DNA of 13,344 bases, taken from IMG/VR virus record IMGVR_UViG_2537561689_000011; one strand, 5' to 3'. The notes under the pieces were generated by a model, which was not told where the DNA came from, made no database searches, and was given only the letters and a program-made list of their open reading frames with translations. The DNA is from a virus (taxonomy: Duplodnaviria; Heunggongvirae; Uroviricota; Caudoviricetes). Both the position numbers and the translations under genes were made by a program. Below are positions 1,148 to 13,344 of this stretch, piece after piece. The stretch's first letter is position 1, and each line of letters starts with the position of its first letter.

Positions 1148-1498
1148 TTACAACATTGTCAGTGCGTTAAGGCGGGATGTTTTTGGCTGACGCCAGTCCA
1201 GCTTATCGAGGAGCATTGCCAGTTGCGAGCGGGTAATGGATATCTTACCGTCACGCACCGCAGGCCAGATAAACTGACCTTCCTCAAGGCGTTTGGTGAA
1301 CAGGCACAGACCATCAGCATCAGCCCACAGGATTTTAATCGTGTCTCCCCGTCGGCCACGGAAGATAAACAGGTGACCGGAGAAGGGGTTATCATCCAGC
1401 ACATGCTGTATCTGCTCCCCCAGACCGTTGAAGGATTTACGCATATCAGTAACGCCGGCAACGAGCCAGATACGGGTACCTGATGGGAGTGAAATCAT
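1148..1498 (-). CDS. tnpB: IS66-family accessory protein TnpB (orf2)
   Basis: 116-aa ORF MISLPSGTRIWLVAGVTDMRKSFNGL... recognised as IS66 orf2; its start overlaps the tnpA stop (1495-1498), the usual IS66 arrangement. Confidence 0.85.
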   Translation of the reverse strand: MISLPSGTRIWLVAGVTDMRKSFNGLGEQIQHVLDDNPFSGHLFIFRGRRGDTIKILWADADGLCLFTKRLEEGQFIWPAVRDGKISITRSQLAMLLDKLDWRQPKTSRLNALTML

Positions 1499-1932
1499 CG
1501 TCCCCTCCCGGTCAGCTCACGGATCAACACCGTGAGCAGCTCTGGTGAAGGATTTTCCAGCATCATTTTACCGTAATGGAATTCCACATGGCAGGAAGCT
1601 GCACAAGCAACTGATAATGCCTCCGGAGCAGGAGCATCTGTAGCACAGCGCGGGGGGTCGATAAGTTCCACTGGAACCAGAGTCGGAGAGGCCGGAAAAG
1701 ATTGTGATACTGTAGGGCCTACAATAGTTGGAGGCATTCTACGAGAAATACGTCCTTCTCTTTGCCAGAGGCGTAGCCATTTAAAAATCAGGTTGTTATC
1801 AACGCCATGTTCCCGGGCCAGTTGTGCAACATTGGCATTTGGTTTCGAAGCCAGTTCAACCATATGAAGTTTAAATTCATTAGAAAATATCCGGCGGGTT
1901 CCGGAGCGCCAGTCTGTAGGTTTATCCATCAA
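1495..1932 (-). CDS. tnpA: IS66-family TnpA (orf1), helix-turn-helix protein
   Basis: 145-aa ORF with ...RRIFSNEFKLHMVELASKPNANVAQLAREHGVDNNLIFKWLRLWQ..., typical of IS66 orf1; first gene of the tnpA-tnpB-tnpC operon. Confidence 0.8.
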   Translation of the reverse strand: MMDKPTDWRSGTRRIFSNEFKLHMVELASKPNANVAQLAREHGVDNNLIFKWLRLWQREGRISRRMPPTIVGPTVSQSFPASPTLVPVELIDPPRCATDAPAPEALSVACAASCHVEFHYGKMMLENPSPELLTVLIRELTGRGR

Positions 1933-3988: not shown

Positions 3989-5071
3989 TTAGAACTGGTA
4001 AACCATACCTACAGCAACGATATCATCGGTAGCAACGCCAGATGCTTTCGTGAAATCGCTCTTATCAATCAGGTTGATTTTGTAGTCAACAAAAGTGGAC
4101 ATATTTTTGTTGAAGTAATAGGTTGCACCTACATCAACATATTCAACCAGGTCCTGATCACCCCAAACACCCAAGTCTTTTCCTTTAGAATGCAGGTAAG
4201 CAACGGATGGACGCAGGCCGAAGTCGAACTGATATTGTGCAACAGCTTCGAAGTTTTGTGCTTTGTTGGCAATATGGTTATTACCAAAAACAGTCATGTT
4301 CTGGGTTTCAGAATAGGTGGTAGCCAGATAGATGTTGTTCGCATCATATTTCAGACCAGCTGCCCATACTTCAGCATTTTGACCAGATGCATTCAGGCTG
4401 TTGTTACCGTAGATAACCTGATTATTAGTGCGGTCAGATTTAGCATAGGTTGCACCTACACCGAATCCTTCATACTCATAAGTAGTGGAGAAACCGAAAC
4501 CATCACCATTAGCTTCAGTTACGTCAGTGCGGTCATTTTTACCCTGATACTGAGCAGCAAAGTTCAGACCATCAACCAGACCAAAGAAGTCATTGTTACG
4601 ATAAGTTGCAACACCTGTGGTGCGACCAGTCATGAATACATCTGTTTGGGTCCAGGTATCGCCACCGAATTCTGGCAGAACGTCGGTCCATGCACCAATA
4701 TCGTATGCTACACCGTAGTTACGGCCATAATCGATGGAGCCGTAGTCACCGAATTTCAGGCCAGCGAAGGCAAGACGGGTTTTATCTTTGGAGGAACCTT
4801 GAGATTCAGCGCGGTTGCCTTTGAATTCATATTCCCACTGACCGAAACCAGTCAGTTGATCGTTGATTTGGGTTTCACCTTTGAAGCCAAGACGGGCATA
4901 AGTAGTATCACCATCATCTGCATCATTAGAGGAGAAGTAGTGCTTAGCATTAACTTTCCCGTACAGATCCAGCTTGTTACTGTCTTTATTATAAATTTCA
5001 GCTGCCTGAGCAGACATCGCCATCAGTACTGATGCAGCTACAGCAGAAATTGCCACTGTTAATTTTTTCAT
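3989..5071 (-). CDS. nmpC: Outer-membrane porin, OmpC/OmpF/PhoE family (NmpC/Lc-like), apparently intact, 360 aa
   Basis: Signal peptide [23 protein letters not shown], then [16 protein letters not shown]..., conserved ...[12 protein letters not shown]..., ...PEFGGD..., ...[10 protein letters not shown]... and C-terminal ...VGMVYQF with terminal Phe. Start set at the MKK Met (5071), not the upstream ATG at 5131 used by the ORF track. Sits between Q and the holin, as nmpC does in DLP12 and lc in PA-2. Confidence 0.9.
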
Positions 5072-5438
5072 CGTGAGCCCTTTTTTTGAACTATTATTAA
5101 AAAATGATGTCACTGCGCGATAAATATTCATCTAATCAATGTGATTATTTCAAGATGTAAGTTTTGGTTTCTCATTTGATTTGTGAAGTAGATCTCTATT
5201 TTTATCTGAACTTTTTCTATCGAATCCTATTCATGGCTCTTGGCTGAATAAAAATAAATCTATTAGCCAATTTATATTAATGGCTGTTATTTATAAGTGC
5301 TCTATAATTTGAAGATTCAATTTAAACCAGCTAAAAATAACGCTGGAAATTATTTGTTGGTTATTTGTTGAGATTTGCTTATGTATTTGTAGTGGTGTTT
5401 TCAATACTCGGTAGCATTCTCGCAAATATCATTTAGTG

Positions 5439-5467
5439 GTTTACGTACGTAAAAAATTGGTTATGCT
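5439..5467 (+). promoter_or_regulatory. Candidate sigma70-like late promoter upstream of the lysis cassette
   Basis: TTTACG (5439-5444) - 17 bp - TATGCT (5462-5467), about 30 nt upstream of a strong plus-strand terminator hairpin; the layout resembles lambdoid pR'-tR'. By-eye hexamer match only. Confidence 0.25.
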
Positions 5468-5497
5468 GTTAAGAGTGGTTACTTCGTCACACAGCTT

Positions 5498-5530
5498 AAA
5501 CCCGCCGTCGAGCGGGTTTTTCCATTTTTT
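5498..5530 (+). terminator. Intrinsic terminator (tR'-like) upstream of the holin
   Basis: 8-bp stem AAACCCGC / GCGGGTTT with loop CGTCGA, followed by TTTTCCATTTTTT; about 130 nt upstream of the holin start. Confidence 0.45.
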
Positions 5531-5658
5531 GAGTCTCGATATTAGCTGATAACCCAATACCTGAGTTATTCACTGACTCCGAGTCTGTTACGTTTCTGCT
5601 TTTTTGCGATACGTTGTATTCCCTCAATTTACACCCGCTTTGTCTGCGAGGTGGGGTT

Positions 5659-6931: not shown

Positions 6932-9006
<2,075 letters not shown>

Positions 9007-9135
9007 ATTGACACTCACGCGCATATTAACGAGAGCCTTTCAGTAAGCGAGCCTGAGAAATGCCGTTATAGGTGGCGACCTCTCTCGGGCGGCTTTTCTG
9101 TGAGACAGGCTCACTTTCTAAAAGGTAAAGACGCT

Positions 9136-9660
9136 ATGAATAATCATTCAGTTATTCCAGCCTTCGACTTCCGAGAAATGGTGCAAGCCAAAAACGGAGA
9201 GGTCGTTACCACATCCAGAAAAATTGCCAAGTACTTCGGCAAGCGACACGGTGATGTTCTCAGGAAAATCGAGCAGGTTAAGGCTGATTGCTCGCGTGAG
9301 TTTAGCCAACGCAATTTTGCGTCGGCTGATTATATCGATGAGCAGGGCAAGGTTCGCCCGATGTACAGCCTGACGAAAGATGGCTGGATCATGGTTGTGA
9401 TGGGGTTCACCGGGAAAGCTGCTGCGGCAATCAAGGAGAGCTATATCGCAGCATTCAACTGGATGGCAGAACAACTGAGCCGCCGCATGGCAATTGGCGA
9501 AGAAATGCAGCACCGCTACGCCATCAAAGAAACACGCTCAAAGCTGAAAGGTACGATCGGCAGTCGGTTAATGAACGAACGGAAGAAAGAGAAGCGTGTC
9601 CTGGCTGTCGAGCATGAATACATCTTGCAGGTGACACAGCCTGAACTGCTGATTAATTGA
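9136..9660 (+). CDS. rha: Rha-family phage regulatory protein (174 aa)
   Basis: MNNHSVIPAFDFREMVQAKNGEVVTTSRKIAKYFGKRHGDVLRKIEQ... matches the N-terminal Phage_pRha signature as I recall it. Start chosen at 9136 because the track's upstream extension (from 8986) begins inside the IS100 end. Confidence 0.7.
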   Translation: MNNHSVIPAFDFREMVQAKNGEVVTTSRKIAKYFGKRHGDVLRKIEQVKADCSREFSQRNFASADYIDEQGKVRPMYSLTKDGWIMVVMGFTGKAAAAIKESYIAAFNWMAEQLSRRMAIGEEMQHRYAIKETRSKLKGTIGSRLMNERKKEKRVLAVEHEYILQVTQPELLIN

Positions 9661-9962
9661 AGATGTCATTACAAAGCCTATCTACGGGGGGCTTGATAAT
9701 GGCTTATACCCTGCACGGGATAACTTAACTGATATCCCTTTTAACGGATAAAGGTATTCAAGCCTGACACATCATGCGCTGTATCGTCGCCGTATTCCCG
9801 CATTAACCATGACCGTAGCCCGACGGGGAATTCCTTCTGCGTGAGTGTGCGGGAATAATCAAAAACGATGCACACCGGGTTATTAACGCGTCAACTGAAC
9901 GCGGGGTTGCTCTTCATGTCAGCCAGTCCGGTGCAGGGGTAGAAGAAACCGGACGTTATGGT

Positions 9963-10373
9963 TTAGTGTGGAAACATTTGTGATGTGCTCTGTATGTTTT
10001 CAGTAAAGAGTAATGAATTATCAAAGGCATAGTAATATCTTTTTTGTTCGTGGATATTTGTAACCCACCGAAAAACTCCTGCTTTAGCAAGGTTTCTTCT
10101 GTATTCCTGAAATGTGATCTCTCTGGATTTCAGCTTATTAGAGGTCGTTTCTATAAGATGCCTATCCTTTGAAAATTTGACAGACACAATGTTTTTTAGG
10201 CCCTTTAATAACACTGTATTATCATTTTTTAATACAATATGAACATTCTCTGTGGCTAAATAGTAAATGTAATGTGAGACATTATGACGTTTTAGCTCAG
10301 AATAAAACCATTGATAGTTTAAATCGTTTCGAACTTTATCAAATATTTGTTTAAAAATGACTACCTGATCCAT
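9963..10373 (-). CDS. ybcV: YbcV-like DUF1398 protein (136 aa), AT-rich moron gene
   Basis: [49 protein letters not shown]...; start placed at the Met preceded by GGAAGG (the track's ORF begins 14 codons upstream at 10415). GC content is visibly lower than the surrounding phage genes. Identity to DLP12 ybcV is from recall. Confidence 0.55.
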
Positions 10374-10431
10374 AGATAAACCTTCCATGTGATATGAGGG
10401 GGGCGTAGTCTGCACGATTATCTAAATTGCT

Positions 10432-10665
10432 TCAATCTGGTCTGATCTGTTTTCTGAGCAATTCAGTAATGTCACTCTTTTCTTTGTTTGCTTCAGGAGA
10501 AACTCTTTTTTCTGAGCACAGTCTCCGGCGGCAGGCTTCAATGACCCAGGCTGAGAAATTCCCGGACCCTTTTTGATCAAGAGCGATGTTAATTTGTTCA
10601 ATCATTTGGTTAGGAAAGCGGATGTTGCGGGTTGTTGTTCTGCGGGTTCTGTTCTTCGTTGACAT
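10432..10665 (-). CDS. ylcI: YlcI-like small protein (DUF3950) with ribbon-helix-helix-like N-terminus (77 aa)
   Basis: MSTKNRTRRTTTRNIRFPNQMIEQINIALDQKGSGNFSAWVIEACRRRL...: basic N-terminus, predicted beta-strand (RNIRFP) then helices, as in CopG/Arc-type DNA-binding proteins; AGGG ribosome-binding site upstream; directly upstream of and co-oriented with the ybcV-like gene. Confidence 0.5.
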   Translation of the reverse strand: MSTKNRTRRTTTRNIRFPNQMIEQINIALDQKGSGNFSAWVIEACRRRLCSEKRVSPEANKEKSDITELLRKQIRPD

Positions 10666-10830
10666 GAGGTTGCCCTGTATTCAGTGTCACTGATTTGTAT
10701 TGTCTGAAGTTGTTTTTACGTTAAGTTGATGCAGATCAATTAATACGATACCTGCGTCATAATTGATTATTTGACGTGGTTTGATGGCGTAGATGCACGT
10801 TGTGACATGCAGATGATAATTATTATCATT

Positions 10831-11053
10831 TTGCGGATCCTTTCCGGCGATCCGACAGGTTACGGGGCGGCGACCTCGCGGGTTTTCGCTATTTATGAAA
10901 ATTTTCCGGTTTAAGGCGTTTCCGTTCTTCTTCGTCGTAACTTAATGTTTTTATTTAAAACACCCCCTGAAAAGAAAGGAAACGACAGGTGCTGAAAACG
11001 GGCTTTTTGGCCTCTGTCGTTTCCTTTCTCTGTTTTTGTCCGTGGAATGAACA
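10831..11053 (+). other. Lambda-type cos site (cosQ - cosN - cosB), cosN GGGCGGCGACCT at 10865-10876
   Basis: The 12-nt lambda cohesive-end sequence GGGCGGCGACCT is present at 10865-10876, preceded by ...CCGACAGGTTACG (lambda right-end sequence) and followed by the Nu1-binding region leading into nu1; matches the phage lambda cos region from recall. Confidence 0.8.
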
Positions 11054-11599
11054 ATGGAAGTCAACAAAAAGCAGCTGGCTGACATTTTCGGCGCGAGTAT
11101 CCGTACCATTCAGAACTGGCAGGAACAGGGAATGCCCGTTCTGCGAGGCGGTGGCAAGGGTAATGAGGTGCTTTATGACTCTGCCGCCGTCATAAAATGG
11201 TATGCCGAAAGGGATGCTGAAATTGAGAACGAAAAGCTGCGCCGGGAGGTTGAAGAACTGCGGCAGGCCAGCGAGGCAGATCTCCAGCCAGGGACTATTG
11301 AGTACGAACGCCATCGACTTACGCGTGCGCAGGCCGACGCACAGGAACTGAAGAATGCCAGAGACTCCGCTGAAGTGGTGGAAACCGCATTCTGTACTTT
11401 CGTGTTGTCGCGGATCGCAGGTGAAATTGCCAGTATTCTCGACGGGATCCCCCTGTCGGTGCAGCGGCGTTTTCCGGAACTGGAAAACCGACATGTTGAT
11501 TTCCTGAAACGGGATATCATCAAAGCCATGAACAAAGCAGCCGCGCTGGATGAACTGATACCGGGGTTGCTGAGTGAATATATCGAACAGTCAGGTTAA
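11054..11599 (+). CDS. nu1: Terminase small subunit Nu1 (181 aa)
   Basis: MEVNKKQLADIFGASIRTIQNWQEQGMPVLRGGGKGNEVLYDSAAVIKWYAERDAEIENEKLRREVEELRQ..., essentially lambda Nu1 (N-terminal winged-HTH cosB-binding domain). Confidence 0.9.
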   Translation: MEVNKKQLADIFGASIRTIQNWQEQGMPVLRGGGKGNEVLYDSAAVIKWYAERDAEIENEKLRREVEELRQASEADLQPGTIEYERHRLTRAQADAQELKNARDSAEVVETAFCTFVLSRIAGEIASILDGIPLSVQRRFPELENRHVDFLKRDIIKAMNKAAALDELIPGLLSEYIEQSG

Positions 11600-12878
11600 C
11601 AGGCTGCGGCATTTTGTCCGCGCCGGGCTTCGCTCACTGTTCAGGCCGGAGCCACAGACCGCCGTTGAATGGGCGGATGCTAATTACTATCTCCCGAAAG
11701 AATCCGCATACCAGGAAGGGTGCTGGGAAACACTGCCCTTTCAGCGGGCCATCATGAATGCGATGGGCAGCGACTACATCCGTGAGGTGAATGTGGTGAA
11801 GTCTGCCCGTGTCGGTTATTCCAAAATGCTGCTGGGTGTTTATGCCTACTTTATAGAGCATAAGCAGCGCAACACCCTTATCTGGTTGCCGACGGATGGT
11901 GATGCCGAGAACTTTATGAAAACCCACGTTGAGCCGACCATCCGCGATATTCCGTCGCTGCTGGCGCTGGCTCCGTGGTATGGCAAAAAGCACCGGATAA
12001 CACGCTCACTATGAAGCGTTTTTCCAATGGTCGTGGCTTCTGGTGCCTGGGCGGTAAAGCGGCAAAAAACTACCGTGAAAAGTCAGTGGATGTGGCGGGT
12101 TATGATGAACTTGCTGCCTTTGATGAGGATATTGAACAGGAAGGCTCTCCGACGTTCCTTGGCGACAAACGTATTGAAGGCTCGGTCTGGCCAAAGTCCA
12201 TCCGTGGCTCCACGCCCAAAGTGAGAGGCACCTGTCAGATTGAGCGTGCAGCCAGTGAATCCCCGCATTTTATGCGTTTTCATGTTGCCTGCCCGCACTG
12301 CGGGGAGGAGCAGTACCTTAAATTTGGCGATAAAGAGACGCCGTTTGGCCTCAAATGGACGCCGGATGACCCCTCCAGCGTGTTTTATCTCTGCGAGCAT
12401 AATGCCTGCGTCATCCGCCAGCAGGAGCTGGACTTTACTGATGCCCGTTATATCTGCGAAAAGACCGGGATCTGGACCCGTGATGGCATTCTCTGGTTTT
12501 CGTCATCCGGTGAAGAGATTGAACCGCCTGACAGTGTGACCTTTCACATCTGGACAGCGTACAGCCCGTTCACCACCTGGGTGCAGATTGTCAAAGACTG
12601 GATGAAGACGAAAGGGGATACGGGAAAACGTAAAACCTTCGTGAACACCACGCTCGGTGAGACGTGGGAAGCGAAAATCGGCGAACGTCCGGATGCTGAA
12701 GTGATGGCAGAGCGGAAAGAGCATTATTCAGCGCCCGTTCCTGATCGTGTTGCTTACCTGACCGCCGGTATCGACTCCCAGCTGGACCGCTACGAAATGC
12801 GCGTATGGGGATGGGGGCCGGGTGAGGAAAGCTGGCTGATTGACCGGCAGATTATTATGGGCCGCCACGACGATGAAC
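11574..12878 (+). pseudogene. A: Terminase large subunit (lambda gpA-like), inactivated by a 1-nt frameshift near 11994 and 3'-truncated by the IS66 insertion at 12879
   Basis: Track ORF 11574..12014 (MNISNSQVNRLRHFVRAGL...WYGKKHR then ITRSL-stop) and track ORF 11975..12988 in another frame (...DNTLTMKRFSNGRGFWCLGGKAAKNYREK...GIDSQLDRYEMRVWGWGP...) are consecutive parts of one gpA-like protein. The frame switches at CACCGGATAAC (11991-12001), where a CGG-GAT reading needs one more G. Terminase-like sequence stops at ...GRHDDE, the IS terminus starts at 12879, and only about half of a roughly 640-aa large subunit is present. Confidence 0.85.
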
Positions 12879-13344
12879 GTAAGCGACTCGTCAGAACCGT
12901 ATTGATATTTACTGAGAGCTCAGATCAACTTTCCAGGGCAACAGATCGCGTACCCGGTTTGCCGGCCAGTCCTGGATATGTTCAATGACGTAACGCAGCC
13001 ACTTTTCTGGCTCCACATTGTTCAGACGGCATGTGCCGATCAGCGAGTACAACACCGCCGCATGTTCACCACCGCTGTCGGAACCCGCGAACATCCAGTT
13101 TTTCCGGCCTACGGCCACTCCCCGTAAGGCGTTCTCTGCGATGTTGTTGTCGATTTCCACCCAGCCATTACTGCAGTACACGTTCAGTGCATCCCACTGT
13201 TTCAGCAGGTATGCGAACGCTTTTGCCGTATCTGAGTGACGCGACAGTGTTTTCATCTGTTGCTGTATCCAGTCATACAGTGACTGCATCAGTGGCGCGG
13301 CTCTGGCTTTTCTTGCCGCCAGACGCTGTTCTGCTGACAGCCCC
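12879..13344 (-). mobile_element. IS66-family insertion sequence, partial (runs off the right window edge); same orientation as the copy at 1-2014
   Basis: Terminus GTAAGCGACTCG... at 12879 (reverse-complement counterpart of ...CGCTTAC at 2014), followed by the 3' end of tnpC on the minus strand. Confidence 0.8.
12909..13344 (-). CDS. tnpC: IS66-family transposase TnpC, C-terminal ~145 codons (5' part beyond window edge)
   Basis: Frame is open from the right edge ([18 protein letters not shown] then [29 protein letters not shown]...) to ...[64 protein letters not shown], the conserved IS66 transposase C-terminus; stop at 12909-12911. Confidence 0.85.

Follow-up and report, generated by a model that had tools for sequence, protein, structure and literature searches.

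Organisation and identity of the cassette

The DNA analysed here is the whole 13,344-nt stretch of the Caudoviricetes record IMGVR_UViG_2537561689_000011 (the window, to which all coordinates refer), and the subject of this study is a cassette of two small genes within it, one encoding a protein of the YlcI/YnfO family and the other a protein of the DUF1398 family. A reading made from the sequence alone (the sequence-only reading) had placed two co-oriented minus-strand genes between the lysis genes and cos. Open reading frame (ORF) calling confirmed both genes on that strand, and their position was borne out by cosN at 10865-10876 and, beyond it, by the Nu1 gene identified with Pfam at 11054-11599. 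The features of the locus are as follows:

9963 to 10373, minus strand: DUF1398 gene of the YdfO type, 136 amino acids; ATG at 10373, stop codon at 9963-9965, GC content 0.31
10374 to 10431, minus strand: intergenic spacer of 58 bp, holding a C6 tract and the DUF1398 gene's ribosome-binding site, GGAAGG
10404 to 10447, minus strand: 44-nt element 5' of DUF1398 genes, recognised by sequence conservation; GAtCAGACCAGATTGAAG ... ATCGTGCAGACTAC
10432 to 10665, minus strand: ylcI/ynfO-type gene, 77 amino acids; basic N-terminal arm, predicted ribbon-helix-helix (RHH) core at about residues 13-53, variable C-terminal tail
10446 to 10460 and 10504 to 10518, no strand assigned: two 15-nt direct repeats, from a repeat search (family D2) and homology breakpoints
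10666 to 10864, no strand assigned: region from the ylcI start to cosN, with repeats; presumed site of the ylcI promoter
10865 to 10876, plus strand: cosN cohesive-end sequence GGGCGGCGACCT, the right boundary of the cassette region

In its long form the DUF1398 ORF runs from a GTG over 9963-10415 (minus strand), and the 136-amino acid form begins at the ATG at 10373, which is preceded by a GGAAGG Shine-Dalgarno sequence. The C6 tract of the spacer corresponds to G6 on the plus strand at 10401-10406.

The 136-amino acid protein, previously assigned to a domain-of-unknown-function family, matched Pfam PF07166 (DUF1398) over profile positions 1-119 of 119 (E = 2e-46; 157.4 bits against a cut-off of 22), and the small protein matched both Pfam PF13132 (DUF3950; E = 4.9e-21, 74.8 bits against a cut-off of 25) and the YlcI/YnfO family model NF041551 of NCBIfam (35.7 bits against a cut-off of 30). 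The names YlcI and YbcV used in the sequence-only reading had the families right, but the closest E. coli K-12 orthologues are YnfO and YdfO of the Qin prophage (each 96% identical; PDB 2HH8 for YdfO) and not the DLP12 proteins, YbcV being 77% identical to the DUF1398 protein. Qin ynfO (b4533) and ydfO (b1549) have the same arrangement of a 77-amino acid DUF3950 gene, a spacer of ~57 bp and a 136-amino acid DUF1398 gene beside the Nu1-type gene nohA, and the ynfO-ydfO-nohA region shares 96% DNA identity with window positions 9924-11100. The window differs from Qin in that its cassette sits in a DLP12-like prophage (with a porin, essD/rrrD-type lysis genes, and intact cos and Nu1) and in minor substitutions, one of which falls in a PdhR-like box (GGTCAGACC to GATCAGACC). 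Judged by sequence identity, this is a lambdoid prophage locus of the Qin type, the ynfO-ydfO cassette.

Cassette genes are found in K-12 Qin and DLP12 and in phage lambda, the cassette region is also carried by inducible phages such as PhiR70_1, and at least 80% of window positions 9600-11100 is covered in 1339 of 5426 complete E. coli genomes, in which the products are annotated as 'YlcI/YnfO family protein' and 'DUF1398 domain-containing protein'. The earlier suggestion of an undescribed function at this place is true of the function, which is still biochemically unassigned (ynfO and ydfO stand on the 2024 y-ome list of uncharacterised genes; PMC11551758), but not of the genes themselves, which are real and already catalogued and named.

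Marked AT-richness is confined to the DUF1398 gene, which has a GC content of 0.314 against 0.487 for the window, 0.495 for the flanking Rha gene and 0.531 for Nu1; the low GC content earlier ascribed to both genes thus applies strongly to this one, but ylcI, at 0.440, is not strongly AT-rich. Purifying selection acts on both genes, the proportions of synonymous and non-synonymous differences (pS and pN) being 0.49 and 0.07 for the ylcI core compared with phage BP-4795, and 0.43 and 0.10 for the DUF1398 gene compared with lambda. A terminator scan found no terminator-like hairpin in the spacer and, since the genes lie 58 bp apart without a terminator between them, read-through co-transcription of ylcI and the DUF1398 gene is likely in the window.

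Linkage of the two genes

Four YlcI alleles were sampled in IMG/VR, giving 201 non-redundant loci, 191 of them informative. A DUF1398 gene lay downstream of ylcI in 74 loci and was absent despite room for it in 117 of the informative ones, where alleles lacking DUF1398 had no other conserved ORF downstream of ylcI; in all, ylcI is solitary in about 60-70% of phage loci. Among GenBank phage records the YlcI core was found in 155 and DUF1398 in 43. In every case ylcI is placed between Rz and the packaging genes and runs on the opposite strand, whether these genes are of the Nu1 or of the HNH-TerS (BP-4795) type. Paralogues of DUF1398 of the YcgX type (45-50% identity) and of the Kluyvera/Klebsiella/Salmonella type (33-39% identity) are solitary chromosomal genes, and no YlcI was found within 5 kb of the YcgX-type and Kluyvera/Klebsiella-type genes.

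Adjacency of the two genes holds only for the 77-amino acid allele of YlcI. Here the DUF1398 gene follows 56-59 bp downstream in 79 of 80 IMG/VR loci, the differences in spacer length among the 79 arising at the poly-C tract, and likewise in all 70 loci of a second sample, in which the 77-amino acid tail co-occurred with DUF1398 throughout. In most of one set of IMG/VR loci (L074-L153), the DUF1398 gene is only ~75% identical to that of the window beside a ylcI that is 97-100% identical, which implies a mosaic boundary at the 3' end of ylcI or shortly beyond it.

In lambda and DLP12 the pair is split by a module of ~610 bp that carries ybcW/lambdap79 on the opposite strand. Homology of the window to DLP12 and lambda breaks at 10452 and 10503, and the site of the module corresponds to the point in the window that is bracketed by the 15-nt direct repeats. 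The module junction sets the alternative C-terminal tails of YlcI, giving proteins of 77 or 64 amino acids. The right end of lambda and the DLP12 ylcI-ybcW-ybcV region share with the window a DUF1398 homologue (77% amino acid identity), the lysis-to-cos position and the strand, and differ from it in the ~610-bp module, in the other C-terminus of the 64-amino acid YlcI and in having bor at the left, where the window has Rha. In lambda the 64-amino acid YlcI-family ORF lies at 48109-48303 on the complement (3110-3304 of L005) and is unannotated in NC_001416; its core is 94.5% identical to the window protein over 55 amino acids. Other lambda-like records label this ORF as hypothetical or as YlcI/YnfO family. 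In K-12, RNA-seq has revealed convergent overlap of the ybcW and ylcI transcripts (PMC12288877), and in a CRISPR interference (CRISPRi) screen of lambda lambdap79 scored as 'essential', but earlier literature in the same table gives it as non-essential (PMC10695390).

The sequence-only reading had proposed a toxin-antitoxin-like or regulator-effector pair. In a type II system, YlcI/YnfO would serve as an antitoxin of the RHH class, with a C-terminal tail that neutralises the toxin, DUF1398, and would autoregulate the operon. Such a system would fit the gene order of the 77-amino acid allele (the RHH gene first and the larger gene closely downstream on the same strand), the differing YlcI tails in different contexts, and the AT-richness and mobility of the cassette; the RHH antitoxins of type II systems (RelB, ParD, DinJ, MazE and TacA) likewise combine an RHH core with a C-terminal tail and lie upstream of a larger gene. 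Unlike those antitoxins, YlcI has a partner that is not conserved, that resembles no known toxin fold or family and that has been over-expressed without reported toxicity. Toxin-antitoxin genes are conserved as an adjacent co-oriented pair across genomes, whereas here the pair is split in lambda and DLP12, ylcI stands alone in most of the informative loci and outnumbers DUF1398 in phage records, and the YcgX-type and Kluyvera/Klebsiella-type DUF1398 genes have neither YlcI nor any other small partner upstream. An ASKA over-expression clone of ybcV was recovered in a glycogen screen, where it alters glycogen content (PMC2853380), YdfO was produced for nuclear magnetic resonance (NMR) analysis (2HH8), and published conditions raise the expression of ybcV and ydfO 100- to 1000-fold; no toxicity is reported in the published over-expression work on these DUF1398 homologues. 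Apparent natural YlcI-DUF1398 fusions in public protein sets (P0001, of 233 amino acids with 761 members, and P0242), which might have served as Rosetta-stone evidence, proved to be gene-calling artefacts in which the TGA of ylcI is read as Trp, depending on the length of the poly-C tract.

The pairing is therefore facultative, reflecting historical linkage and not functional necessity. The perfect linkage of the 77-amino acid tail with DUF1398 is explained because the 44-nt element, which belongs to DUF1398, overlaps the last ylcI codons, and no functional interaction is required. Given this facultative pairing, the solitary paralogues, the separate 44-nt element and over-expression without reported toxicity, a toxin-antitoxin reading is unlikely, and as an account of this cassette we assign it a very low probability.

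The DUF1398 protein

The AlphaFold2 (AF2) model of the DUF1398 protein (predicted local distance difference test, pLDDT, 90) consists of two consecutive alpha-alpha-beta-beta-beta units. The two halves align with each other (hhalign P = 0.0017), indicating an internal duplication, and the model has the duplicated alpha-alpha-beta3 fold of YdfO, whose solution NMR structure is 2HH8. It is an orphan fold, with no structural relative. Conserved residues of the protein are Y35, T41, N43, G99, W103, R112 and Y114. As the sequence-only reading had noted, no catalytic motif could be recognised: searches of Pfam, NCBIfam and PADLOC yielded no catalytic or toxin family, and PADLOC-DB v2 gave no significant defence match, the best for DUF1398 being Csx23 (E = 0.009, 14 bits) and YlcI having none.

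An exhaustive phmmer search of 1.84 billion representatives returned only 193 DUF1398 relatives, many of them fragments, and true matches in species-representative genomes were restricted to the Enterobacteriaceae. A broad taxonomic spread, suggested by 77%-identical matches in Pseudomonas, Kitasatospora, Brevibacillus and other taxa, was rejected; these matches look like contamination with lambda control DNA, because the lambda-like contigs concerned, of ~3.5 kb or ~48.5 kb, carry lambda-type ybcV and ylcI. The assemblies with such contigs also include Flavobacterium and Cohnella (L011-L031, L034-L037, L042, L047-L049, L051), and error-laden versions swell the protein databases (e.g. P0016-P0036). 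The solitary DUF1398 gene of Kluyvera and its relatives is divergently paired with a conserved ORF of 74 amino acids (MLEGYFDLDGATG...) that lies ~250 bp upstream (L054, L056, L058-L060, L062, L065, L066, L068, L070, L072). A link of chromosomal DUF1398 genes to AriR/YmgB-type connectors through this neighbour was considered and dismissed, as the 74-amino acid protein resembles none of AriR, YmgA and YcgZ and matches nothing in Pfam, and the synteny is at genus level only.

Database labels place the protein in the virion, phrog_413 and the RefSeq entry for lambdap78 being called 'head protein' and older records 'putative envelope protein'. Against this, the gene and the late operon are on opposite strands, lambda forms plaques normally when lambdap78 is knocked down by CRISPRi, which marks the gene as non-essential (PMC10695390), the homologue YdfO has a solution NMR structure, and paralogues occur in non-phage chromosomal contexts. 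These labels seem to have been passed from record to record with no experiment at their origin, and a virion role is almost certainly incorrect.

A second possibility is that DUF1398, perhaps under YlcI control, is cargo for superinfection exclusion, anti-phage or anti-defence activity that protects the lysogen or the phage. The gene occupies a position like that of lysogenic-conversion genes (the window porin at 3989-5131; bor in lambda and DLP12), is oriented opposite the late operon and is diverse in its alleles, as seen in the ~75%-identical versions beside near-identical ylcI, all of which would be in keeping with such a role. The PADLOC result, the lack of a reported phenotype and the existence of chromosomal paralogues outside prophages count against it, and we consider it unlikely.

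On the reading that we favour, DUF1398 is a soluble cytoplasmic protein whose action most likely consists in binding a partner of the host (or phage).

The YlcI/YnfO protein

The first ~50 residues of YlcI are almost invariant between alleles, and the tail is variable. The sequence-only reading had recognised an RHH pattern in the protein, and its AF2 model (pLDDT 66 overall, about 82-85 in the core) has the layout of that fold within ~45 residues, that is a strand segment, helix A, a G-x-(S/T/N) turn and helix B, represented by an extended segment at residues 13-18 (RNIRFP), a helix at 19-32, the turn G33-S-G-N36 (GSGN) and a helix at 37-53. The best structural matches of the model were the RHH antitoxins RelB, ParD, DinJ, Bacillus subtilis MazE and TacA, which may point to a structural similarity with solved RHH proteins. 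Searches of the PDB with YlcI, by Foldseek and by sequence including the family profile, gave no match.

Arc and Mnt of phage P22 are RHH repressors of the immI region. Like YlcI they are small phage-encoded late-region proteins with the order strand, helix, G-x-S/N turn, helix, and with their sequences taken from the P22 record hhalign placed YlcI T12-G33 on Arc Q9-G30 without gaps and in the expected RHH register, at a P value (0.059) that is not significant. The strands then correspond as Q9-FNLRWP-...-G30 in Arc and T12-RNIRFP-...-G33 in YlcI, with N14 and R16 of YlcI, an Asn and an Arg, on the Arc base-contact positions N11 and R13. YlcI differs from Arc and Mnt in its longer basic N-terminal arm and variable tail, in a similarity that falls short of significance, and in having no conserved adjacent operator or antirepressor arrangement. 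BLASTP of YlcI against Arc and Mnt gave no match, no RHH family of Pfam was matched even at E <= 10, and a PHROG family annotated as HicB-like matched weakly (E = 0.007); in neither sequence nor profile comparisons did YlcI show significant similarity to a recognised family of RHH proteins. A match to a 'transcriptional repressor' of Pasteurella phage Pmp7 was spurious, as it lies on the strand opposite the annotated gene.

The RHH proposal is thus compatible with the modelled topology and the Arc register but has no significant homology behind it, and an RHH fold is our best reading of YlcI from topology and from the apparent enrichment of RHH proteins among its structural neighbours. Most likely, YlcI/YnfO is a dimeric DNA-binding protein of the Arc/CopG type with a basic N-terminal arm and with a probable role as a small repressor of transcription or as an autoregulator. 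An immunity circuit resembling Arc/Mnt-Ant, formed with the neighbouring Rha/Ant gene, was rejected, Ant/Rha being near ylcI in only ~24 of ~157 loci and in none of lambda, DLP12 and Qin.

The ylcI promoter presumably lies within 10666-10864, where a consensus scan detected no minus-strand promoter. With the right end of lambda this region shares 94% identity, and the homology ends at 10864, directly before cosN. It contains a 13-nt inverted repeat (10735-10747 and 10755-10767; 85% complementary, 7-nt spacer) ~70-100 bp upstream of the ylcI start and a perfect 8-bp inverted repeat, ATGATAAT-T-ATTATCAT, at 10813-10829, ~35 bp left of cosN, both of which are candidate protein-binding sites. An operator upstream of ylcI common to different phages was rejected, since the upstream region of BP-4795 is unrelated.

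The 44-nt element and published expression and phenotype data

The 44-nt block and the end of ylcI overlap in the last five codons and the stop codon of the gene. It is also conserved in Qin, DLP12 and lambda and accompanies DUF1398 even without ylcI; it is 70-75% identical to the upstream regions of YcgX-type genes, third codon positions there being only 42-47% identical. The block, probably a promoter or operator, contains the sequence resembling a PdhR box that has been reported in K-12 for ynfO/ydfO and ybcV. A structured 5'-untranslated RNA upstream of DUF1398 was rejected (RNAalifold -2 kcal/mol with no covariation; no Rfam hit in the window).

Expression data for the K-12 homologues are available from several studies. 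A PdhR site was found by genomic SELEX, and ybcV and ybcW mRNA levels were ~10-fold lower in a pdhR mutant (PMC7660256); expression of T4 MotB, which alters H-NS repression, raised ybcV and ybcW more than 1000-fold (PMC7827196); and an ionic liquid induced ydfO 116-fold (PMC4077768). Together these suggest that the K-12 homologues are silenced by H-NS and are under PdhR- and stress-responsive control.

One study called ydfO essential by TraDIS (the sequencing of sites of transposon insertion) only (PMC5821084), and we deem this unreliable because single-gene deletion data disagree. A further claim, that YdfO over-expression confers resistance to oxidative stress (PMC4077768, citing Wang et al. 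2010), was also set aside: the work concerned (PMC3105296) names YfdK, YfdO and YfdS of CPS-53 and never ydfO, and the claim is a confusion of gene names with YfdO that could propagate.

The surrounding prophage

The late region of the window is lambdoid and is ordered as a Q-type antiterminator, a porin, a P21-type holin, a lysozyme, Rz, an IS21-family insertion, a Rha-family gene, the cassette, cosN, Nu1 and the terminase large subunit. Rz and the cassette are thus separated by the insertion and by the Rha-family gene (to 9660), a correction to the sequence-only reading. Defined by comparison with an IS-free E. coli prophage (L001), the IS21-family element measures 1953 bp (7061-9013) with a 5-bp target duplication, lies between a small post-Rz ORF and the Rha-family gene, and contains an istA-like ORF (7147-8100) and IstB (8165-8947). 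The N-terminal extension in the long form of the 'Rha' ORF (8986-9660, 224 amino acids) is IS-derived sequence.

Beyond Nu1 the terminase large-subunit gene is broken into overlapping ORFs at 11574-12014 and 11975-12988, with one gap relative to an intact homologue, and homology stops at 12878, from where a fragment of an IS66-family transposase follows (12909-13289, minus strand). Because this gene is split and its homology is lost at 12878, the prophage is defective for packaging, although cos and Nu1 appear intact. At the other end, the left 2 kb (1-2014) shows no homology with L001, the prophage locus used as reference, and an IS3-type OrfA-like helix-turn-helix transposase ORF lies at 1495-1932 (minus strand); with three IS elements the region is IS-riddled, as is typical of Shigella-like genomes. 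The porin gene, at 3989-5131 on the minus strand between Q and the holin, is of the OmpC/NmpC prophage type, a classical lysogenic-conversion gene, and the sequence just upstream of it (5100-5550) is very AT-rich (GC 0.28-0.33).

Interpretation and significance

We favour, with moderate confidence, the reading that the cassette consists of two independently mobile accessory genes, an RHH-like YlcI/YnfO regulator and a separately regulated DUF1398 gene of lysogenic-conversion cargo. Under this proposal two small 'moron'-like genes would be transcribed against the late operon and would move independently. YlcI/YnfO would be a repressor or autoregulator that is regularly present at the lysis-packaging junction of many lambdoid phages, with or without DUF1398, and DUF1398 would be cargo expressed from its own conserved upstream element, its product binding a host (or phage) partner.

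The location is, as the sequence-only reading had noted, a lysogenic-conversion (moron) site, lambda and DLP12 carrying bor there. The cassette is inserted between modules, is polymorphic for presence and absence, has a GC content (0.31 for DUF1398) below that of the window (0.49) and lies on the strand opposite the late genes. It shares with the lambdoid morons bor, lom and the porin nmpC a place between functional modules, an orientation opposite to, or an independence of, late transcription, a deviant composition and a variable presence; its orientation, the conserved upstream block and the K-12 expression data suggest that it is transcribed independently. It is unlike typical morons in that consensus scans give no clear promoter-terminator pair.

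Four points weigh against our interpretation. The consensus scans detected no sigma-70 promoter and no intrinsic terminator for either gene; the perfect co-occurrence of the 77-amino acid tail with DUF1398 could reflect a functional interaction instead of linkage; confidence in the AF2 model of YlcI is only moderate over the full length, and the ribbon strand cannot form in a monomer model; and the binder or cargo role of DUF1398 is reached by exclusion, no partner, ligand or phenotype being known for the protein.

A bolder extension, which we think improbable, is that DUF1398 proteins, lambdap78 among them, are orphan-fold effectors that would bind a target in the host or phage, would alter lysogen physiology or phage susceptibility and would be turned on through the 44-nt element in response to H-NS/PdhR or another input, and that YlcI, with the unannotated 64-amino acid ORF of lambda, would be an Arc-like repressor forming an unrecognised regulatory node at the lysis-packaging junction.

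Although the genes were already known, the analysis has corrective value, in that annotation of the pair as a toxin-antitoxin system should be avoided and the 'head protein' and 'envelope protein' labels of DUF1398 are unsupported. The cassette is very common in E. coli and has homologues in lambda, yet neither protein has an assigned function. The conserved control element that DUF1398 possesses offers a concrete experimental handle, and a functional assignment would close a gap in what is known of the best-studied phage.

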